NCBI RefSeq assembly: GCF_056712565.1
Contig: NZ_CM160072.1
Direction: 5' to 3' (one strand)
Length of the DNA stretch: 64,000 nt
Shown here one piece after another: positions 3,298 to 63,595 of the stretch. A program made the position numbers and the translations under genes. The notes beneath the pieces are model-generated. The model made no database searches, was not told the origin of the DNA, and was given only the letters and a program-made list of their open reading frames with translations. Every line of letters starts with the position of its first letter. Positions within the stretch are counted from its first letter, which is position 1.

Positions 3298-6201
<2,904 letters not shown>

Positions 6202-6721: not shown

Positions 6722-7561
6722 TTAATACACTTCATCCAGCACGTTAATTTTCAATAGATCGCTAATCAACGCATTTTTATCGCTATTTTGTAGCCATATG
6801 GCATAAAGCGGCCGTGAAAGTGTTGTGCTATCGACAACGGTATGCAGGCCGCCTTTTTTACGTGCCCAACTGACGGGTAGCCAGGTGCAACCATTAAGCA
6901 TCGCAATCTGTTGCTGTGCCAGTTCAGCAGAACTGGTTGTCAGAATGGGAACTTCGTCAGCACCGATCAAACCTGCCTCATGCTGTTGAAAATCTGGCCC
7001 CCACTCTAGTCGCAGATAGTTAAGATCTCCCTTTAGTTTAGAAGGGGCACTGGTATAAAGCGCTAAAGTGAAATACCCCAGCAACTGACTACAAAATTCG
7101 TCCATTTTGGGGGCTTCAGTTGTAATAAGAAGATCAAGCTGGCGTTCATGCAACTGTTTTACCAGAGACTGCCGTTGGGCAATTCGCGCTTCGAACTGTA
7201 AGCCTGTATGGACATCCTGATTTTGATACAAGCGTCCCAGCCACTGATTAAGCATACACTCCCACAGCGAGGCGCTGGCACCGATAGAAAACTCATTATG
7301 TCGTGAGGTATGCGCCACCTCCTTGCGGGCGGCCTGCCAGGTGCTCATGAGCGTTTCTGCATAAGGCAGAAGCTTTTCTCCGGCAGCGGTTAAACGGATA
7401 TTGTTTCTGTGGCGGGTGAAAAGATTCACACCCAGTTGATTTTCCAGTTGTCTGATTCGAAAGCTCACGGCTGATTGGGTCAGATAGAGCGATTCAGCCG
7501 CTCGACCAAAGTGACGCGTTCGGCTAACTTCCAGGAAAGTTTTTAACAATTCCGTATCCAC
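6722..7561 (-). CDS. hdfR: LysR-type transcriptional regulator HdfR
   Basis: 279-aa ORF; N-terminal LysR HTH ([40 protein letters not shown]); conserved position after rrnC. Confidence 0.9.
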
Positions 7562-14926: not shown

Positions 14927-16471
14927 ATGGCAGACTCACAACCCCTGTCCGGTGCCCCTGAAGGTGCCGAATATTTAAGAGCGGTGCTGCGCGCGCCGGT
15001 CTACGAAGCGGCGCAGGTCACGCCGCTACAAAAAATGGAAAAACTCTCGTCGCGTCTCGATAACGTGATTCTGGTGAAACGCGAAGACCGTCAGCCAGTT
15101 CATAGCTTTAAGCTGCGCGGCGCATACGCCATGATGGCGGGCCTGACGGAAGAACAGAAAGCGCACGGCGTGATCACCGCTTCTGCGGGTAACCACGCGC
15201 AGGGCGTCGCGTTTTCTTCCGCACGGTTAGGCGTGAAGGCACTGATCGTCATGCCAACCGCCACCGCCGATATCAAAGTCGACGCGGTGCGCGGCTTCGG
15301 CGGCGAAGTGCTTCTTCACGGCGCGAACTTTGATGAAGCAAAAGCGAAAGCGATCGAACTGTCACAGCAGCAGGGCTTCACCTGGGTGCCGCCGTTCGAC
15401 CATCCGATGGTGATCGCCGGGCAAGGCACGCTGGCGCTGGAACTGCTCCAGCAGGACGCCCATCTCGACCGCGTATTTGTGCCAGTCGGCGGCGGCGGTC
15501 TGGCGGCGGGCGTGGCGGTACTGATCAAACAACTGATGCCGCAAATCAAAGTGATTGCCGTGGAAGCGGAAGACTCCGCCTGCCTGAAAGCGGCGCTGGA
15601 TGCAGGTCATCCGGTTGAGCTGCCACGCGTGGGGCTGTTTGCCGAAGGTGTTGCGGTGAAACGCATCGGCGACGAAACCTTCCGTTTATGCCAGGAGTAT
15701 CTCGACGACATCATCACCGTCGATAGCGATGCCATATGTGCGGCGATGAAAGACCTGTTCGAAGATGTGCGCGCGGTAGCGGAACCCTCTGGCGCGCTGG
15801 CACTGGCGGGAATGAAAAAATATATCGCCCAGCACAACATTCGCGGTGAGCGGCTGGCGCATATTCTTTCTGGTGCTAACGTGAACTTTCACGGCCTGCG
15901 CTACGTCTCGGAACGTTGCGAACTGGGCGAACAGCGTGAAGCGTTGCTGGCGGTAACCATCCCGGAAGAGAAGGGCAGCTTCCTGAAGTTCTGCCAGCTG
16001 CTTGGCGGGCGCTCGGTCACCGAGTTCAACTACCGTTTTGCCGATGCCAAAAACGCCTGCATTTTTGTTGGTGTGCGCCTGAGCCGTGGTCTCGAAGAGC
16101 GCAAAGAAATTTTGCAGATGCTCAACGATGGCGGCTACAGCGTAGTGGATCTCTCCGACGACGAAATGGCGAAGCTGCATGTGCGCTATATGGTCGGCGG
16201 GCGTCCGTCGCATCCGTTGCAGGAACGCCTCTACAGCTTCGAATTCCCGGAATCGCCGGGCGCGCTGTTGCGCTTCCTCAACACGCTGGGTACGCACTGG
16301 AACATTTCTTTGTTCCACTATCGCAGCCATGGCACCGACTACGGGCGCGTACTGGCGGCGTTCGAACTTGGCGACCATGAACCGGATTTCGAAACCCGGT
16401 TGAATGAGTTGGGTTACGATTGCCACGACGAAACCAATAACCCGGCGTTCAGGTTCTTTTTGGCGGGTTAA
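14927..16471 (+). CDS. ilvA: threonine dehydratase (biosynthetic), PLP enzyme with C-terminal ACT regulatory domains
   Basis: Track ORF 14924..16471 (515 aa, MMADSQ...); likely start at second Met. Confidence 0.93.
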   Translation: MADSQPLSGAPEGAEYLRAVLRAPVYEAAQVTPLQKMEKLSSRLDNVILVKREDRQPVHSFKLRGAYAMMAGLTEEQKAHGVITASAGNHAQGVAFSSARLGVKALIVMPTATADIKVDAVRGFGGEVLLHGANFDEAKAKAIELSQQQGFTWVPPFDHPMVIAGQGTLALELLQQDAHLDRVFVPVGGGGLAAGVAVLIKQLMPQIKVIAVEAEDSACLKAALDAGHPVELPRVGLFAEGVAVKRIGDETFRLCQEYLDDIITVDSDAICAAMKDLFEDVRAVAEPSGALALAGMKKYIAQHNIRGERLAHILSGANVNFHGLRYVSERCELGEQREALLAVTIPEEKGSFLKFCQLLGGRSVTEFNYRFADAKNACIFVGVRLSRGLEERKEILQMLNDGGYSVVDLSDDEMAKLHVRYMVGGRPSHPLQERLYSFEFPESPGALLRFLNTLGTHWNISLFHYRSHGTDYGRVLAAFELGDHEPDFETRLNELGYDCHDETNNPAFRFFLAG

Positions 16472-17361
16472 TGGTTCGGCAAAATCTTCCAGAACGCCTC
16501 AATCAGCGGCTCATGCAGCCGCTTTTTCTGCGCACAGACGCCCAGTTCAAAAGGTGTTTTCTCATCACTGCGCTCTAAAATCATCACGCGGTTACGCACT
16601 GGTTCCGGGCTGTTTTCCAGCACCACTTCCGGCAACAAGGCCACGCCACAGCCGAGCGCTACCATCGACACCATCGCTTCATGCCCGCCGACCGTGGCGT
16701 AAATCATCGGGTTGCTGATTTTGTTGCGTCGAAACCACAGTTCAATGCGCCGGCGCACCGGTCCCTGATCGGCCATGATAAACGGCACTGTAGACCAGTC
16801 CGGCTTCTCTGCCGAAACTTGGTTACGCACCGGGCAGGGTAGCGCGGGGGCAATCAGCACTACTGCCAGATTCTCCAGCATCGAAAACGCCACTGCGCCG
16901 GGCAGAGTCTCCGGTTTCCCGGCAATCGCCAGATCCGCTTCGCCAGTGACTACCTTTTCCATCGCATCTGCCGCATCACCAGTCGTGAGTTTAATCTCCA
17001 CCGACGGGTGTTCCGCGCGGAAGCGATCGAGAATCGGCGGCAGATGGCTGTAGGCAGCGGTCACCGAGCAGAAGATATGTAATTCGCCAGAGAGCGACGG
17101 TCCTTGCTGATCGATGGTGTGGCGCAGCTGTTGATACTGCAACAGCGTTTGCTGGGCGAAAACGCGCAGTTCTTCGCCTGCTTCGGTTAGCGTTACCGTG
17201 CGGTTATCGCGCACAAACAGCGGCTGACCGAGATCGTCTTCCAGGCGCTGAATCTGCCGAGAGAGCGTGGACGGGCTAACGTGCATTGCCCGCGCGCTGC
17301 GGCCAAAATGGCGGCTTTCCGCCAGATGCAGGAAGGTTTTCAGATCGCGTAAATCCAATGG
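16468..17361 (-). CDS. ilvY: LysR-type regulator IlvY
   Basis: Track ORF 16468..17442; LysR HTH ([38 protein letters not shown]); probable TTG start at the L of LDLRDL giving ~297 aa. Confidence 0.85.
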
Positions 17362-17507
17362 CGCAGCCCTTAATGTTGACGTTGCAGAAATTGCAATGTG
17401 ACGTTGTGAATATATCAATTTCCGCAATAAATTTCCTGTCATATAGTGAATTCAATCTCGCAAACGCGAACCGAACAATAAGAAGCACAACATCACGAGG
17501 AATCACC

Positions 17508-18983
17508 ATGGCTAACTACTTCAATACACTGAATCTGCGCCAGCAGTTGGCACAGCTGGGCAAATGTCGCTTTATGGGGCGCGATGAATTCGCCGATGGC
17601 GCGAGCTACCTTCAGGGTAAAAAAGTAGTCATCGTCGGCTGTGGTGCACAGGGTCTGAACCAGGGCCTGAACATGCGTGATTCTGGTCTCGATATCTCCT
17701 ACGCTCTGCGTAAAGAAGCGATTGCCGAGAAGCGCGCATCCTGGCGTAAAGCGACCGAAAACGGCTTCAAAGTTGGCACTTACGAAGAACTGATCCCGCA
17801 GGCGGATCTGGTGGTTAACCTGACGCCAGACAAGCAGCACTCTGACGTAGTGCGTTCCGTTCAGCCGCTGATGAAAGACGGCGCGGCGCTGGGCTACTCT
17901 CATGGTTTCAATATCGTAGAAGTGGGTGAGCAGATCCGTAAAGACATCACCGTCGTAATGGTTGCGCCGAAATGCCCTGGCACCGAAGTACGTGAAGAGT
18001 ACAAACGTGGATTCGGCGTACCGACGCTGATTGCCGTTCACCCGGAAAACGATCCGAAAGGCGAAGGCATGGCGATCGCTAAAGCATGGGCGGCTGCAAC
18101 CGGCGGTCACCGTGCGGGCGTTCTGGAATCCTCTTTCGTTGCGGAAGTGAAATCTGACCTGATGGGCGAGCAAACCATCCTGTGCGGTATGTTGCAAGCT
18201 GGTTCTCTGCTGTGCTTCGACAAGCTGGTGGAAGAAGGCACCGATCCGGCATACGCAGAAAAACTGATTCAGTTCGGTTGGGAAACCATCACCGAAGCGC
18301 TGAAACAGGGCGGCATCACCCTGATGATGGACCGTCTTTCTAACCCGGCGAAACTGCGTGCTTACGCGCTCTCTGAGCAATTGAAAGAGATCATGGCGCC
18401 GCTGTTCCAGAAACATATGGACGACATCATCTCCGGCGAATTCTCCTCCGGCATGATGGCTGACTGGGCCAACGACGATAAGAAACTGCTGACCTGGCGT
18501 GAAGAGACTGGCAAAACCGCATTCGAAACCGCGCCGCAGTATGAAGGCAAAATCGGCGAACAGGAGTACTTCGATAAAGGCGTACTGATGATCGCGATGG
18601 TAAAAGCAGGCGTTGAGTTGGCGTTTGAAACCATGGTTGATTCCGGCATCATCGAAGAATCTGCTTACTATGAATCACTGCACGAACTGCCGCTGATTGC
18701 CAACACCATCGCCCGTAAGCGTCTGTACGAAATGAACGTGGTTATCTCCGATACTGCCGAGTACGGTAACTATCTGTTCTCTTACGCTTGTGTGCCGCTG
18801 CTGAAACCGTTTATGGCAGAGCTGCAACCGGGCGACCTGGGTAAAGCTATTCCGGAAGGTGCGGTAGATAACGCGCAACTGCGTGATGTAAATGAAGCGA
18901 TTCGCAGCCATGCGATTGAGCAGGTAGGTAAGAAACTGCGCGGCTATATGACGGATATGAAACGTATTGCTGTTGCGGGTTAA
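17508..18983 (+). CDS. ilvC: ketol-acid reductoisomerase (NADP+)
   Basis: Track ORF 17286..18983 is an over-extension; true N-terminus [22 protein letters not shown] (491 aa). Confidence 0.95.
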
Positions 18984-26635: not shown

Positions 26636-27739
26636 GTGAATTTACTGACAGTGAGTACTGATCTCATCAGTATTTTTTTATTCACGACACTGTTTCTGTT
26701 TTTTGCCCGTAAGGTGGCAAAAAAAGTCGGTTTAGTGGATAAACCAAACTTCCGCAAACGTCACCAGGGATTGATACCTCTCGTTGGGGGGATTTCGGTT
26801 TACGCAGGGATTTGCTTCACGTTCGGAATTGTCGATTACTATATTCCGCATGCATCTCTCTATCTCGCTTGTGCTGGTGTGCTTGTTTTCATTGGCGCGC
26901 TGGATGACCGTTTTGATATCAGCGTAAAAATCCGTGCCACCATACAGGCCGCTGTTGGCATTGTTATGATGGTGTTCGGCAAACTTTATCTCAGTAGCCT
27001 GGGTTATATCTTTGGCTCCTGGGAGATGGTGCTCGGACCGTTTGGTTACTTCCTGACGCTATTTGCCGTCTGGGCGGCCATTAATGCGTTCAACATGGTT
27101 GATGGCATTGATGGCTTGCTGGGCGGGTTGTCCTGCGTCTCGTTTGCAGCAATCGGTATGATTTTGTGGTTCGACGGGCAAACCAGTCTCGCAATCTGGT
27201 GCTTTGCGATGATCGCCGCCATCCTGCCATACATCATGCTTAACCTTGGTATCCTGGGTCGCCGCTACAAAGTCTTTATGGGGGATGCGGGCAGTACGCT
27301 GATTGGTTTTACCGTTATCTGGATCCTGCTCGAAACGACCCAGGGCAAAACTCATCCCATCAGCCCGGTTACCGCTTTGTGGATAATCGCCATTCCGCTA
27401 ATGGATATGGTGGCGATTATGTACCGTCGCCTGCGTAAAGGCATGAGCCCATTCTCTCCAGACCGTCAGCATATTCACCATTTGATCATGCGTGCCGGGT
27501 TTACTTCCCGCCAGGCGTTTGTGCTGATTACCCTTGCCGCAGCACTGCTCGCTTCCATTGGCGTGCTGGCAGAATATTCTCATTTTGTCCCGGAGTGGGT
27601 CATGCTGGTGCTCTTTTTGCTAGCATTCTTCCTCTATGGATATTGCATTAAGCGTGCCTGGAAAGTTGCTCGCTTTATTAAGCGCGTAAAACGCAGACTG
27701 CGTAGAAATCGTGGTGGCAGCCCCAATTTAACCAAATAA
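26636..27739 (+). CDS. wecA: UDP-GlcNAc:undecaprenyl-phosphate GlcNAc-1-phosphate transferase (ECA/O-antigen initiation)
   Basis: 367-aa polytopic membrane ORF (GTG start), MraY/WecA family; first gene of the ECA cluster. Confidence 0.93.
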   Translation: MNLLTVSTDLISIFLFTTLFLFFARKVAKKVGLVDKPNFRKRHQGLIPLVGGISVYAGICFTFGIVDYYIPHASLYLACAGVLVFIGALDDRFDISVKIRATIQAAVGIVMMVFGKLYLSSLGYIFGSWEMVLGPFGYFLTLFAVWAAINAFNMVDGIDGLLGGLSCVSFAAIGMILWFDGQTSLAIWCFAMIAAILPYIMLNLGILGRRYKVFMGDAGSTLIGFTVIWILLETTQGKTHPISPVTALWIIAIPLMDMVAIMYRRLRKGMSPFSPDRQHIHHLIMRAGFTSRQAFVLITLAAALLASIGVLAEYSHFVPEWVMLVLFLLAFFLYGYCIKRAWKVARFIKRVKRRLRRNRGGSPNLTK

Positions 27740-28797: not shown

Positions 28798-28852
28798 CAA
28801 CACTGCTGCGGTGAGCGCAAAGGCGCTCGCCGCTTATTCGAAGAGAATCGAT

Positions 28853-29983
28853 GTGAAAGTACTGACTGTATTTGGTACGCGCCCGGAAGCCATCAAGATG
28901 GCACCGTTGGTGCATGCGTTGGCAAAAGATCCTTTTTTTGAGGCTAAAGTTTGCGTCACTGCGCAGCATCGGGAGATGCTCGATCAGGTGCTGAAACTCT
29001 TTTCCATTGTACCTGACTACGATCTCAACATAATGCAGCCAGGACAGGGCCTTACAGAGATAACCTGTCGGATTCTGGAAGGGCTAAAACCTATTCTTGC
29101 CGAGTTCAAACCAGACGTCGTGCTGGTTCACGGCGATACTACTACAACGCTGGCAACCAGCCTGGCGGCGTTTTATCAGCGTATTCCAGTTGGTCACGTT
29201 GAGGCAGGTCTGCGCACGGGCGATCTCTATTCGCCGTGGCCGGAAGAGGCTAACCGTACATTGACCGGGCATCTGGCGATGTATCACTTCTCTCCAACCG
29301 AAACTTCCCGGCAAAACTTGCTGCGTGAAAACGTTGCTGACAGCCGAATCTTCATTACCGGTAATACTGTCATCGATGCACTGTTATGGGTGCGTGACCA
29401 GGTGATGAGCAGCGATACGCTGCGTTCAGAACTGGCGGCAAATTACCCGTTTATCGACCCCGATAAAAAGATGATTCTGGTGACCGGTCACAGGCGTGAG
29501 AGCTTCGGTCGTGGCTTTGAAGAAATCTGCCAGGCGCTGGCAGACATCGCCACCACGCACCAGGACATCCAGATTGTCTATCCGGTGCATCTCAACCCGA
29601 ACGTCAGAGAGCCGGTCAATCGCATTCTGGGGCATGTGAAAAATGTCATTCTGATCGATCCCCAGGAGTATTTACCGTTTGTCTGGCTGATGAACCACGC
29701 TTGGCTGATTTTGACCGACTCAGGCGGCATTCAGGAAGAAGCGCCTTCGCTGGGGAAACCGGTGCTGGTGATGCGCGATACCACTGAGCGTCCGGAAGCG
29801 GTGACAGCGGGGACGGTGCGTCTGGTCGGCACGGATAAGCAGCGAATTGTCGAGGAAGTGACGCGTCTTTTAAAAGACGAAAACGAATATCAAGCTATGA
29901 GCCGCGCCCATAACCCGTATGGTGATGGTCAGGCATGCTCTCGCATTCTGGAAGCGTTAAAAAATAATCGGATATCACTATGA
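28853..29983 (+). CDS. wecB: UDP-N-acetylglucosamine 2-epimerase
   Basis: Track ORF 28811..29983; known start (GTG) at [20 protein letters not shown] (376 aa). Confidence 0.93.
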
Positions 29984-32327: not shown

Positions 32328-33209
32328 ATGAAAGGTATTATCTTGGCGGGCGGTTCCGGCACCCGATTGCATCCGATTACGCGCGGCGTATCGAAGCAAC
32401 TGTTGCCGATTTACGATAAGCCAATGATTTACTATCCGCTGTCGGTGCTGATGCTAGCCGGTATCCGCGAAATTCTCATCATTACTACGCCGGAAGATAA
32501 AGGTTATTTCCAGCGCCTGCTGGGTGACGGCAGTGAGTTCGGTATCCAGCTGGAATACGCCGAACAGCCCAGTCCGGACGGTCTGGCGCAGGCCTTTATC
32601 ATCGGTGAAACCTTCCTCAACGGTGAACCTTCTTGTCTGGTGCTGGGCGATAACATCTTCTTCGGACAGGGCTTCAGTCCGAAGCTGCGTCATGTTGCGG
32701 CGCGCACGGAAGGGGCGACGGTATTTGGCTATCAGGTGATGGACCCGGAACGCTTTGGCGTGGTGGAGTTTGACGACAATTTCCGCGCTATCTCGCTGGA
32801 AGAAAAACCAAAACAGCCGAAATCAAACTGGGCGGTGACCGGGCTTTATTTCTACGACAGTAAAGTCGTGGAGTACGCAAAGCAGGTGAAGCCGTCGGAG
32901 CGTGGTGAACTGGAGATTACCTCCATCAACCAGATGTACCTCGAGGCGGGCAACCTGACCGTTGAACTGCTCGGGCGCGGATTTGCCTGGCTGGATACCG
33001 GCACTCACGACAGCCTGATTGAGGCCAGCACTTTTGTGCAGACAGTAGAAAAACGCCAGGGCTTTAAGATTGCCTGCCTGGAAGAGATTGCCTGGCGTAA
33101 CGGCTGGCTCGATGACGAGGGTGTGAAGCGTGCTGCCAGTTCATTAGCGAAAACTGGCTACGGCCAATATCTGCTGGAGTTACTTCGTGCCCGTCCGCGC
33201 CAGTATTGA
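32328..33209 (+). CDS. rffH: glucose-1-phosphate thymidylyltransferase (ECA-cluster paralogue)
   Basis: 293-aa [21 protein letters not shown] nucleotidyltransferase motif. Confidence 0.93.
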
Positions 33210-46603: not shown

Positions 46604-47797
46604 TTATTCTCCTTGCGGCGCGGCTGCCGGAGCATCAGCTTGCGGTGCAGGTGCAGGTGCAGGTGCAGGTTTAGCTTCCGTTGTCCCTGCTGCCGGTTGT
46701 GCCAGCAGGTTACGCACGCGGGTCTGCATCAATTTTTCCAGCATCGCCTGGCTTTGCAGGGTTTCCGGAAGATCCATCGAGATATTTTGCTGGCTTAACT
46801 GGTCCACCTCGTCGAGGAACGCTTTGGTGGTGGCATCATCAGTATCGTAGTAAGCACGTACCCAGGTGGAGACGTTCTCCAGCGCCTGGCGATAAGTCTC
46901 TTCCTGGTGACGCGGTACAGCTTGTGCTGCGACCAGCAGGCGAGAGCGAATATTTTCGCGCAGATAGATATCCTGATTTGGCGCTAACAGCGGTACGGCG
47001 GTGTCATCACGACGGCGAATCGTAATGAAGTTGTCCATAAAGTTCTGCCAGCTTTTTTGCAGATTGATACGCCATTCGCTGATGGAACTGGAAAGCTCTT
47101 CACCGTCGGAATCCATCGGCGAACCATCGCTGTCATTATCGGCCAGACGCAGATTATCTACCTGATTTGAAAGCTGATTAAGCTTAAGGATGATACCGTC
47201 ATAATCCACCTGCGATACCGCAGAAAGGCTGGCGATATCATCGGTAATTGCCCGGCGAACGGTAATCAGACTCGGGTCATTCATATCCGCCAGGCTGGCG
47301 TCTGCACTTTTCAGCAACGCTGCAGCGGTCGTGACGTCCTGATCGCTCCACAGCTTCCGTCCGGCGAGTTTCACCAGAAAATCGGCCTGGGCCAGCAGCC
47401 AGGTTTTAGCATCGCTGCCGGAAATGGTGGCGACCTTTTGTTGGACTTCATCCAGCTGTTTTGCCAGCGTTTCTTGCTGACGATTCGCCTGCTCAAGCTG
47501 TACAGCTTGTTGCTTGATAATGCCTTCCAGCTCGGCTTTTTGGCTCTCCTGGGCTTTTTGCAGTGCCGTAAGTTGGTTAGCCAGGGCATCGCTGGTGGCA
47601 GTCTGATTGACGGCCTGTTGTTTACCCCAGCCATACAAACCGACGCCCGCCGCCAGAGCAATAGCGATAGCCACCGCGCTGAGAATCAATGCGGTATTGT
47701 TCTTACTCTTTTTTTCTGTTGCGACAGGTTGTGACGTGGTGTCCACGGCCTCCCTGGTCTCTTCAACCACGGCGGAGGTTTTTTCTTGTTCCGTCAT
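46604..47797 (-). CDS. hemX: HemX (membrane-anchored coiled-coil protein)
   Basis: 397-aa [21 protein letters not shown]...; C-terminal Pro-Ala repeat ([22 protein letters not shown]). Confidence 0.9.
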
Positions 47798-49497: not shown

Positions 49498-49883
49498 GCT
49501 TGTTACCGTCATTATCATCCGTGGTCCATCCTAACATCCTTGCCAGAGCGATGTCAGTGTTGTGGTGAAACGTAGACGCCTGCGCAAACCGTAAAATGAG
49601 GTCTGGCAGTGGATCCTGACAGGCGCTTTGAGCCTTCGTAATAAGGAATTTACAGAGAATAAACGGTGCTACACTTGTATGTAGCGCATCTTTCTTTACG
49701 GTCAATCAGCAAGGTGTTAAATTGATCACGTTTTAGACCATTTTTTCGTCGTGAAACTAAAAAAACCAGGCGCGAAAAGTGGTAACGGTTACCTTTGACA
49801 TACGAAATATCCCGAATGCCGCGTGTTACCGTTGATGTTGGCGGAATCACAGTCATGACGGGTAGCAAATCAGGCGATACGTC

Positions 49884-52430
49884 TTGTACCTCTATATTGA
49901 GACTCTGAAACAGAGACTGGATGCCATAAATCAATTGCGTGTGGATCGCGCGCTTGCTGCTATGGGGCCTGCATTCCAACAGGTCTACAGTCTACTGCCG
50001 ACATTGTTGCACTATCACCATCCGCTAATGCCGGGTTACCTTGATGGTAACGTTCCCAAAGGCATTTGCCTTTACACGCCTGATGAAACTCAACGCCACT
50101 ACCTGAACGAGCTTGAACTGTATCGTGGAATGTCAGTACAGGACCCACCGAAAGGTGAGCTTCCAATTACTGGTGTATACACCATGGGCAGCACCTCGTC
50201 CGTAGGGCAAAGTTGTTCCTCTGACCTGGATATCTGGGTCTGTCATCAATCCTGGCTCGATAGCGAAGAGCGCCAGTTGCTACAACGTAAATGTAGTCTG
50301 CTGGAAAGCTGGGCCGCCTCGCTGGGTGTGGAAGTCAGCTTCTTCCTGATTGATGAAAACCGCTTCCGTCATAATGAAAGCGGCAGCCTGGGGGGCGAAG
50401 ATTGTGGCTCCACCCAGCATATACTGCTGCTTGACGAATTTTATCGTACCGCCGTGCGTCTCGCCGGTAAGCGTATTCTGTGGAATATGGTGCCGTGCGA
50501 CGAAGAAGAGCATTACGACGACTATGTGATGACGCTTTACGCGCAGGGCGTGTTGACGCCAAATGAATGGCTGGATCTTGGTGGCTTAAGCTCGCTTTCT
50601 GCTGAAGAGTACTTTGGTGCCAGCCTTTGGCAGCTCTACAAGAGTATCGATTCCCCATACAAAGCGGTGCTGAAAACACTGCTGCTGGAAGCCTATTCCT
50701 GGGAATACCCGAACCCACGTCTGCTGGCGAAAGATATCAAACAGCGTTTGCACGACGGCGAAATAGTGTCGTTTGGTCTCGACCCGTATTGCATGATGCT
50801 GGAGCGCGTCACTGAATATCTGACGGCGATCGAAGATTTTACTCGTCTGGATTTAGTTCGCCGATGCTTCTATTTAAAAGTTTGCGAAAAACTCAGCCGT
50901 GAACGCGCCTGCGTAGGCTGGCGTCGTGAAGTGTTAAGCCAGTTGGTGAAAGAGTGGGAATGGGACGATGCTCGTCTGGCGATGCTTGATAATCGCGCTA
51001 ACTGGAAGATTGATCAGGTGCGTGAGGCGCACAACGAGTTGCTCGACGCGATGATGCAGAGCTACCGCAATCTGATCCGCTTTGCGCGTCGCAATAACCT
51101 TAGCGTTTCCGCCAGCCCGCAGGATATCGGTGTTCTGACACGTAAACTGTACGCCGCGTTTGAAGCGTTACCGGGTAAAGTGACGCTGGTAAACCCGCAG
51201 ATTTCACCCGATCTCTCGGAACCGAATCTGACCTTTATTTATGTGCCGCCGGGCCGGGCTAACCGTTCAGGTTGGTATCTGTATAACCGCGCGCCAAATA
51301 TTGAGTCGATCATCAGCCATCAGCCGCTGGAATATAACCGTTACCTGAATAAACTGGTGGCGTGGGCATGGTTTAACGGCCTGCTGACCTCGCGCACCCG
51401 CTTGTATATTAAAGGTAACGGCATTGTCGATTTGCCTAAGTTGCAGGAGATGGTCGCCGACGTGTCGCACCATTTCCCGCTGCGCTTACCTGCACCGACA
51501 CCGAAGGCGCTCTACAGCCCGTGTGAGATCCGCCATCTGGCGATTATCGTTAACCTGGAATATGACCCGACAGCTGCGTTCCGCAATCAGGTGGTGCATT
51601 TTGATTTCCGTAAGCTGGATGTCTTCAGCTTTGGCGAGAATCAAAATTGCCTGGTAGGTAGCGTTGACCTGCTGTATCGCAACTCGTGGAACGAAGTGCG
51701 TACGCTGCACTTCAACGGCGAGCAATCGATGATCGAAGCCCTGAAAACTATTCTCGGCAAAATGCATCAGGACGCCGCGCCGCCAGATAGCGTGGAAGTC
51801 TTCTGTTATAGCCAGCATCTGCGCGGCTTAATCCGTACTCGCGTGCAGCAACTGGTTTCTGAGTGTATTGAACTGCGTCTTTCCAGCACCCGCCAGGAAA
51901 CCGGGCGCTTCAAGGCGCTGCGCGTCTCCGGTCAAACCTGGGGCTTGTTCTTCGAACGGCTGAATGTCTCGGTACAGAAACTGGAAAACGCCATCGAGTT
52001 TTATGGCGCTATTTCGCATAACAAACTGCACGGCCTGTCAGTGCAGGTTGAAACCAATCACGTCAAATTACCGGCGGTGGTGGACGGCTTTGCCAGCGAA
52101 GGGATCATCCAGTTTTTCTTCGAAGAAACGCAAGACGAGAATGGCTTTAATATCTACATTCTCGACGAAAGCAACCGGGTTGAGGTGTATCACCACTGCG
52201 AAGGCAGCAAAGAGGAACTGGTGCGTGACGTCAGTCGCTTCTACTCGTCTTCGCACGACCGTTTCACCTACGGCTCAAGCTTCATCAACTTCAACCTGCC
52301 GCAGTTCTATCAGATTGTGAAGGTTGATGGTCGTGAACAGGTGATTCCGTTTCGCACCAAATCTATCGGTAACATGCCACCTGCCAATCAGGAGCATGAC
52401 GCGCCGCTGTTGCAGCAGTATTTTTCGTGA
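49884..52430 (+). CDS. cyaA: class I adenylate cyclase
   Basis: 848-aa ORF with TTG initiation codon (ttgtacctctatattgag), [23 protein letters not shown]... Confidence 0.95.
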
Positions 52431-63350: not shown

Positions 63351-63595
63351 AACATGCGCGCACGATCACTCTAAGAGGACATTCGCCTTGGACACACCCA
63401 GTAGATACTGGCTCATTATCCTGTCATCCAGGATCAACTCCTAAGGCTATCCCTTTTTGCTGATAGCCTTAGCGGTTGTCAGCGACCTCAATTTTTCCCG
63501 TCGCGCTGAGTCAGGCTGTTTAATGGTCTGAAACCCAATTTGTTTCTGTGTGCCCACCGAACTGTCCGATATTTTAAGCATTGGGAGTCCCGGTC

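Follow-up and report, generated by a model that had tools for sequence, protein, structure and literature searches.

The codons at which cyaA, ilvY, wecA and wecB open in the analysed sequence are, with a probability of roughly 93%, genuine and already annotated non-AUG starts of ordinary Escherichia coli genes. The feature is already known and nothing in it is new in kind, the cyaA case having been textbook material since 1985; the only new item is descriptive, namely that E. coli lineages do not all share one ilvY start codon and that other genera have ATG at this site. For cyaA and wecA no possible start lies between the preceding stop and the assigned codon, and for ilvY and wecB the available upstream alternatives are rejected by family profiles and orthologues. 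All four codons are preceded, at a distance of 5–10 nt, by a Shine-Dalgarno-like purine run (AAGGG for ilvY, AGG for cyaA, GAGAG for wecA and AAGAGA for wecB), of which the last three pair weakly. N-terminal alignment with orthologues, which the sequence-only reading had proposed as a check, agrees together with the family profiles with all four start assignments.

Genomic context and start-codon census

The window, i.e. the whole stretch of 64,000 nt that was analysed, is a phylogroup-B2-like segment of the E. coli chromosome that spans the region from yieP via ilv, rho, wec, hem and cyaA to corA. Two 601-nt probes, one around cyaA and one around ilvY-ilvC, matched 5425 of 5426 complete E. 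coli genomes, and both were 100% identical to phylogroup-B2-type strains, e.g. ATCC 11775 and Nissle 1917. As a gene map, the RefSeq/PGAP annotation of strain ZJ3920 was transferred onto the window, the two being collinear except for a 24-bp indel in hemX. The resulting order is yieP, the rrn operon, hdfR, ilvLXGMEDA, ilvY, ilvC, ppiC, rep, gppA, rhlB, trxA and rho, followed by the wec/rff cluster, thrP, tRNAs, aslBA, hemYXDC, cyaA, cyaY, dapF, xerC, uvrD and corA. The PGAP starts in an identical-sequence strain are the same TTG and GTG codons that had been named for cyaA, ilvY, wecA and wecB from the sequence alone.

For the census, the start codon of each annotated CDS was extracted and then mapped back onto the window, which gave 44 ATG, 4 GTG and 3 TTG starts. 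Compared with bacterial averages of 80.1% AUG, 11.6% GUG and 7.8% UUG (PMC5499595), the share of non-ATG starts (7/51) is slightly below expectation, with a binomial P(≥7) of 0.9. The idea that the window is unusually rich in, or clustered for, non-ATG starts was rejected on this ground. The list of such starts in the sequence-only reading was correct for the four genes it named, but lacked three others:

7559..7561, minus strand: GTG start of hdfR (PGAP start; position 1 of the HdfR profile NF002946 aligned to residue 1)
33187..33189, plus strand: GTG start of rffC/wecD (PGAP and K-12 start)
63388..63390, plus strand: TTG start of ysgD, the 18-aa corA leader peptide (PGAP annotation only)

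Among 12 orthologues of rffC, the start is GTG, ATG or TTG at the same codon, or ATG one codon upstream. The warning that calling restricted to ATG would misplace starts is borne out, since such calls fall on codon 27 of cyaA, at −84 nt for ilvY, on codon 111 of wecA and on codon 16 of wecB. Current pipelines (PGAP) already place all four correctly.

Position of the four starts

The features of cyaA are as follows:

49884..49886, plus strand: cyaA TTG initiation codon (first start in frame; PGAP start; profile; orthologues)
49884..52430, plus strand: cyaA CDS, class I adenylate cyclase of 848 aa (annotation and profiles)
49871..49883, plus strand: cyaA translation-initiation region, the block CAGGCGAnACGTC with a weak AGG Shine-Dalgarno sequence 9 nt before the TTG

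The claim that cyaA begins with TTG is confirmed by the bases themselves (49884-49886 read TTG), with annotation, profile and orthologue DNA in agreement. An in-frame stop lies 21 nt upstream of this codon, and an earlier start is therefore impossible. Residues 1–848 of CyaA align with positions 1–848 of the class I adenylate cyclase model NF006977 at 2049 bits (curated cut-off 1761), and the Pfam domain Adenyl_cycl_N begins at residue 5. For the DNA comparison we used six orthologues obtained by protein search together with two E. coli sequences, so that the set of eight comprised two E. coli, Salmonella, Serratia grimesii, two further Enterobacterales, Vibrio ponticus and Aeromonas veronii. 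TTG is aligned with codon 1 in 8/8 sequences, at protein identities down to about 50%. The block CAGGCGAnACGTC in front of it is conserved in E. coli, Salmonella, Serratia and the source of the database protein P0010. Upstream of the block a 1-nt indel is tolerated, with an ATG in frame in Salmonella and out of frame in E. coli, as would be expected for non-coding DNA. Two database CyaA proteins, P0010 (from an upstream GTG) and P0034, carry spurious N-terminal extensions and have Leu at the true start; automated callers thus sometimes misplace the start of cyaA. The calculated anti-Shine-Dalgarno pairing is weak at −2.9 kcal/mol, the median over those genes of the window that start with ATG being −5.6.

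Downstream of rho, within the ECA (wec/rff) gene cluster, the following features were assigned to wecA and wecB:

26636..26638, plus strand: wecA GTG initiation codon (first start in frame; PGAP and K-12 start)
26636..27739, plus strand: wecA CDS, 367 aa (annotation and profiles)
28853..28855, plus strand: wecB GTG initiation codon (PGAP and K-12 start; TIGR00236 position 1; first residue of PDB 1F6D)
28853..29983, plus strand: wecB CDS, 376 aa (annotation, profile, structure)
28811..28813, plus strand: upstream in-frame GTG that opens a mechanical 390-aa wecB ORF, rejected as a start

GTG had been proposed as the start of both genes, and this holds in each case. For wecA, the annotation (PGAP and K-12) and the DNA of 13 genomes concur, with an in-frame stop at −24; the protein reaches 575 bits against TIGR02380 (cut-off 326), the match beginning only at residue 7–8. 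For wecB, the agreement extends over annotation, TIGR00236 (619 bits, cut-off 210), structure and orthologue DNA. Residue 15 of the 390-aa ORF, encoded by GTG 28853, coincides with position 1 of the profile and with the first residue of the E. coli enzyme structures, PDB 1F6D and 1VGV, which were aligned with their native sequence of 376 aa. GTG 28853 is present in 13/13 Enterobacterales, and so is the AAGAGA motif upstream of it. In the anti-Shine-Dalgarno calculation, pairing is weak for wecB and likewise for wecA (−2.7 kcal/mol).

The region around the start of ilvY contains the following elements:

17356..17358, minus strand: ilvY TTG initiation codon, GTG in K-12 (PGAP start; IlvY profile position 1; orthologues)
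16468..17358, minus strand: ilvY CDS, LysR-type activator, 296 aa in the window strain (annotation and profiles)
17367..17371, minus strand: ilvY Shine-Dalgarno sequence AAGGG, 8 nt before the TTG (read from the sequence)
17379..17399, no strand assigned: IlvY operator O1 (ACGTTGCAgAAATTGCAATGT), matched to the O1 sequence and position in PMC5002191
17440..17442, minus strand: in-frame upstream ATG that opens a mechanical 324-aa ilvY ORF, judged non-functional

The sequence-only reading had taken the TTG encoding the L of LDLRDLKTF as the start of ilvY, which stands, but had placed it at about 17359-17361; the true position, 17358-17356 on the minus strand (plus-strand CAA), differs by 3 nt. 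Its further statement that the upstream extension is without LysR homology also proved right, since position 1 of NF008722 falls on residue 29 and position 1 of HTH_1 on residue 31 of the 324-aa ORF. Residue 29 of this long ORF is the TTG codon; for many further LysR models the match starts at residues 28–31. IlvY matches the equivalog NF008722 over its full length (511 bits, cut-off 246) and combines an N-terminal HTH_1 domain with a LysR_substrate domain, and its gene is divergent from ilvC with the operators O1 and O2, the latter at 17410-17430. The anti-Shine-Dalgarno pairing amounts to −4.9 kcal/mol. At loci of other Enterobacterales anchored on Rho, the codon aligned with the start was compared: E. 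albertii has TTG, K-12 and Citrobacter sp. FP75 have GTG, and Enterobacter sp. BIGb0383 and two Photorhabdus species have ATG.

According to Wek & Hatfield 1988, as quoted in PMC5002191, O1 (ACGTTGCAAAAATTGCAATGT in K-12) has its centre at +17 of the ilvY transcript; IR1 is placed at −65 relative to the ilvC start. With O1 at 17379-17399 and this published centre, the 5′ end of ilvY would be near 17405 and that of ilvC near 17454. The latter position falls 7 nt past a TATAGT hexamer (17442-17447), which we read as a putative −10 box of ilvC. From these two 5′ ends it follows that the ATG at 17442-17440 would be situated in the untranscribed core between the divergent starts, outside the ilvY mRNA. 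This geometry is based on the account of Wek & Hatfield 1988 quoted in PMC5002191 and on our own reading of the TATAGT hexamer; a simple sigma-70 consensus scan returned no promoter in 17300-17560. In this reading, translation of ilvY begins at the codon immediately ahead of DLRDLKTF, behind a 5′ leader of about 47 nt.

Other start positions were weighed for all four genes. Initiation of wecA at its second GTG (codon 6, 26651-26653) instead of 26636 would be in line with the TIGR02380 profile, which starts at residue 7–8 of WecA, and with the occurrence of GTG at codon 6 in Escherichia and of ATG in Yersinia, Photorhabdus and Acerihabitans. The profile is, however, uninformative for residues 1–6, and the choice between codons 1 and 6 therefore rests on the DNA comparison of 13 Enterobacterales. 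There, codon 1 is GTG and is followed by Asn (AAT or AAC) in 13/13 genomes, with a GAGAG-type purine motif conserved at a fixed distance upstream, whereas codon 6 is GCN (Ala) in six, where it is unable to initiate, ATG in four and GTG in three Escherichia; the codons neighbouring the start vary freely. Consequently, the conserved start must be codon 1, and initiation at codon 6 is highly improbable. Even less credible is a start of wecB at the upstream GTG 28811 (390 aa) or of cyaA at a downstream codon such as ATG codon 27, although the longest wecB ORF opens at GTG 28811 and cyaA has no ATG before codon 27. The GTG at −42 of wecB is not conserved, since most of the 13 genomes either lack it or have a stop that separates it from the start (stops at −15 to −42 in six orthologues), and the extension is without a match in profile or structure, as the profile and the PDB chains begin at 28853. 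In cyaA, residues 2–26 are conserved as far as Vibrio and Aeromonas and are covered by the profiles from position 1, and mutation of the UUG changes the enzyme level (Reddy et al. 1985, via PMC5499595).

For ilvY, translation from the upstream in-frame ATG (17442-17440) would yield 324 aa with an N-terminal extension of 28 residues. It would use the strongest start codon, and no stop interrupts the frame after this ATG in K-12, E. albertii or the window. The open frame within Escherichia is explained by the nature of the DNA itself, which is invariant operator and promoter sequence. In Citrobacter, Enterobacter and Photorhabdus, by contrast, the extension is closed by an in-frame stop that precedes the aligned start by 6–75 nt, and the interval contains no start codon. 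The 28 residues match none of the LysR or IlvY profiles, and the ATG lies ~35 nt upstream of the transcription start inferred from the published O1 position and touches the hexamer read as the ilvC −10 box. Moreover, the codon aligned with the assigned start switches between taxa, but only among start codons (TTG, GTG and ATG). An upstream start of ilvY is thus hardly conceivable, and we retain the TTG at 17358-17356. Altogether, the reference annotation of the four starts is confirmed as right, and the mechanical long ORFs of ilvY (324 aa) and wecB (390 aa) are not to be used; the significance of confirming these starts is small.

Variation of the ilvY initiation region

K-12 ilvY (b3773) shares with the window strain the codon position of the start, the (M)DLRDLKTF N-terminus and the upstream operator and promoter DNA, but its start codon begins with G and that of the window strain with T. 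In total, 8 differences were found in 221 nt, and 7/8 of these are located in a 15-nt stretch that begins just upstream of the Shine-Dalgarno core and ends with the first base of the start codon. At the other end of the gene, a 58-bp REP-like element is absent from the window strain, so that its IlvY has 296 aa and not the 297 aa of K-12.

The distribution of the start codon variants was recorded by megablast with 51-nt probes that had the first base of the ilvY start codon at their midpoint, so that any 28-nt seed must span bases −2 to +3. The caTTG haplotype occurs in at least 3364 (about 62%) and the ctGTG haplotype in at least 1848 (about 34%) of 5426 complete E. coli genomes, with 214/5426 genomes in neither count; the ctGTG group includes K-12, C600 and O157:H7. 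Among the sampled intermediate matches there are at least five haplotypes, and their differences are confined to the 15 nt between a point just upstream of the Shine-Dalgarno core and the first base of the start codon. Outside this stretch, all but two positions are identical in a 131-nt alignment that includes E. albertii. Within it, the GGG core of the Shine-Dalgarno sequence is invariant, while the bases before the core and the spacer after it vary among strains. PGAP places the start at the same ilvY codon in every haplotype sampled. In a non-exhaustive literature search, we found no discussion of the TTG/GTG polymorphism of ilvY.

We read this pattern as relaxed constraint on the ilvY spacer, which is enclosed by tightly constrained operator DNA on one side and by DNA coding for the HTH on the other. 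The drift of the codon between UUG, GUG and AUG among strains and genera likewise suggests weak constraint. IlvY represses its own promoter by negative autoregulation at O1, and this may plausibly buffer changes in translation efficiency. A more far-reaching interpretation is that the initiation region represents a polymorphic hotspot within the species, whose haplotypes tune the IlvY level and the inducibility of ilvC between phylogroups, buffered by autoregulation; this we consider unlikely. If the haplotypes do set different IlvY levels, they would illustrate on a small scale how natural variation in start codon and spacer can tune regulation.

Translational efficiency and comparison with known systems

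In the P site of the ribosome, initiator fMet-tRNA reads UUG or GUG despite the first-base mismatch; the protein still begins with fMet, and initiation is less efficient than at AUG. IF3 accepts both codons as canonical (PMC5499595). The TTG of cyaA had been called a known feature of translational down-regulation, and this fits the reported ratio of 1:2:6 for adenylate cyclase produced from UUG, GUG and AUG at the cyaA start (Reddy et al. 1985, via PMC5499595). The UUG together with the weak Shine-Dalgarno sequence keeps adenylate cyclase synthesis about six-fold under the AUG level, as others have demonstrated by experiment, and the gene is a classic case in which translation initiation limits expression. 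According to the same account (Reddy et al. 1985, via PMC5499595), the cyaA UUG is conserved in many gamma-proteobacteria; its retention across this group would imply selection for low or stress-robust expression. For wecA and wecB, the combination of an invariant GUG with a weak, purine-rich Shine-Dalgarno sequence would make low-efficiency initiation sites, and the conservation of the two GUG codons suggests that they are probably selected.

The alternative is that the non-ATG codons reflect neutral drift at weakly constrained sites and have no regulatory role, which would compete with the down-regulation reading only and leave the positions untouched. In line with drift, the starts of ilvY and rffC switch between ATG, GTG and TTG among close relatives, in the case of ilvY even within E. 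coli, and the window holds no excess of non-ATG starts. The cyaA TTG and the GTG codons of wecA and wecB, in contrast, are invariant across divergences over which adjacent synonymous sites changed, and for cyaA there is direct mutational evidence (Reddy et al. 1985, via PMC5499595). Drift is therefore a possible account that should be taken seriously, but we give preference to the reading of the conserved codons as down-regulating. The contrast between the drifting start of ilvY and the strictly conserved TTG of cyaA and GTG of wecA and wecB could guide tests that separate selected from drifting non-AUG starts.

The INRI-seq supplements contain for cyaA only an alternative out-of-frame in-vitro site inside the gene, the TRAINSPOTTER supplements make no mention of cyaA, ilvY, wecA or wecB, and a literature search on the GTG start of wecA returned nothing relevant.

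The closest known system for cyaA is the UUG start of the gene in E. coli K-12 (Roy et al. 1983; Reddy, Peterkofsky & McKenney 1985), which represents the same feature in another strain with no relevant difference. The two sequences are identical over the compared 32 nt upstream and 39 nt from the TTG, and both genes encode 848 aa. Similarly, K-12 wecA (b3784), K-12 wecB (b3786) and the WecB structure 1F6D show no difference from the window in start region and length. To our knowledge, there is no known case of IF3-type feedback for cyaA, ilvY, wecA or wecB. The AUU start of infC is likewise a non-AUG codon that sets the expression level of its gene (PMC5499595). However, AUU is non-canonical and is rejected by IF3, which results in a feedback loop (PMC5499595), whereas cyaA, ilvY, wecA and wecB use the IF3-accepted codons UUG and GUG.

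Further non-ATG starts

Beyond the four genes listed in the sequence-only reading (TTG for cyaA and ilvY, GTG for wecA and wecB), three further annotated non-ATG starts are present in the window, all of them absent from that list:

7559-7561, minus strand, GTG start of hdfR
33187-33189, plus strand, GTG start of rffC/wecD
63388-63390, plus strand, TTG start of ysgD

According to the annotation, ysgD is the corA leader peptide of 18 aa. Across 12 Enterobacterales, the aligned start codon of rffC is GTG, ATG or TTG, or else an ATG is found one codon 5'.

Surroundings of the cyaA, dapF and ilvY starts

The cyaA TTG lies at 49884-49886 (plus strand). In the Salmonella enterica cyaA locus, an ATG at -30 from the TTG is in frame with cyaA owing to an indel of 1 nt between Salmonella and E. 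coli; in E. coli, the counterpart of this ATG is out of frame and a stop lies at -21. Programs that take the longest ORF are therefore prone to misplace the start of Salmonella cyaA at this upstream ATG. Downstream of the start, among the alternative initiation signals in the supplement of the in-vitro INRI-seq study is an out-of-frame ATG 37 nt into cyaA (K-12 position 3991189); in the window, this ATG (49921-49923, plus strand) opens a mini-ORF of only two codons, ATG CCA TAA. For dapF, two ATG codons stand in tandem (56046-56051, plus strand), and the start is placed at 56046 by the longest ORF versus 56049 by PGAP. INRI-seq lists an in-frame ATG at -3 of K-12 dapF as an alternative in-vitro site.

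Within 221 nt of the ilvY-ilvC control region, the window differs from K-12 at eight positions, seven of which fall within 15 nt (17359-17373, minus strand). This variable stretch, for which at least five haplotypes occur in E. coli, begins just 5' of the SD core and includes the ilvY start codon up to its first base.

Differences in gene ends, length and content between strains

In K-12, the 3' ends of the convergent genes ilvA and ilvY are separated by a 58-bp REP-like palindromic element, …GCCTGATAGCGCTTCGCTTATCAGGCCTAC…. The window lacks this element between the two genes (16468-16471, compared with positions 3876-3935 of the K-12 locus L003); because it is missing, the stop codons of both coding sequences lie within a 4-nt overlap, and IlvY has 296 aa with the C-terminus …PNH, compared to 297 aa and …PNHK in K-12. 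The hemX product (46604-47797, minus strand) comprises 397 aa, compared to 405 aa in E. coli strain ZJ3920 and 393 aa in K-12. The gap to ZJ3920 corresponds to a 24-bp indel, and these strain length differences suggest a variable internal repeat in hemX.

Between cyaY and lptM, the strain type of the window carries a hypothetical gene of 438 aa as well as ORFs of 189 and 281 aa (52838-55650, minus strand), a lineage-specific insertion. At the equivalent site of ZJ3920, the annotation gives the second gene as a pseudogene of the DKNYY family that is interrupted by a stop codon, and the K-12 interval contains yzcX only.
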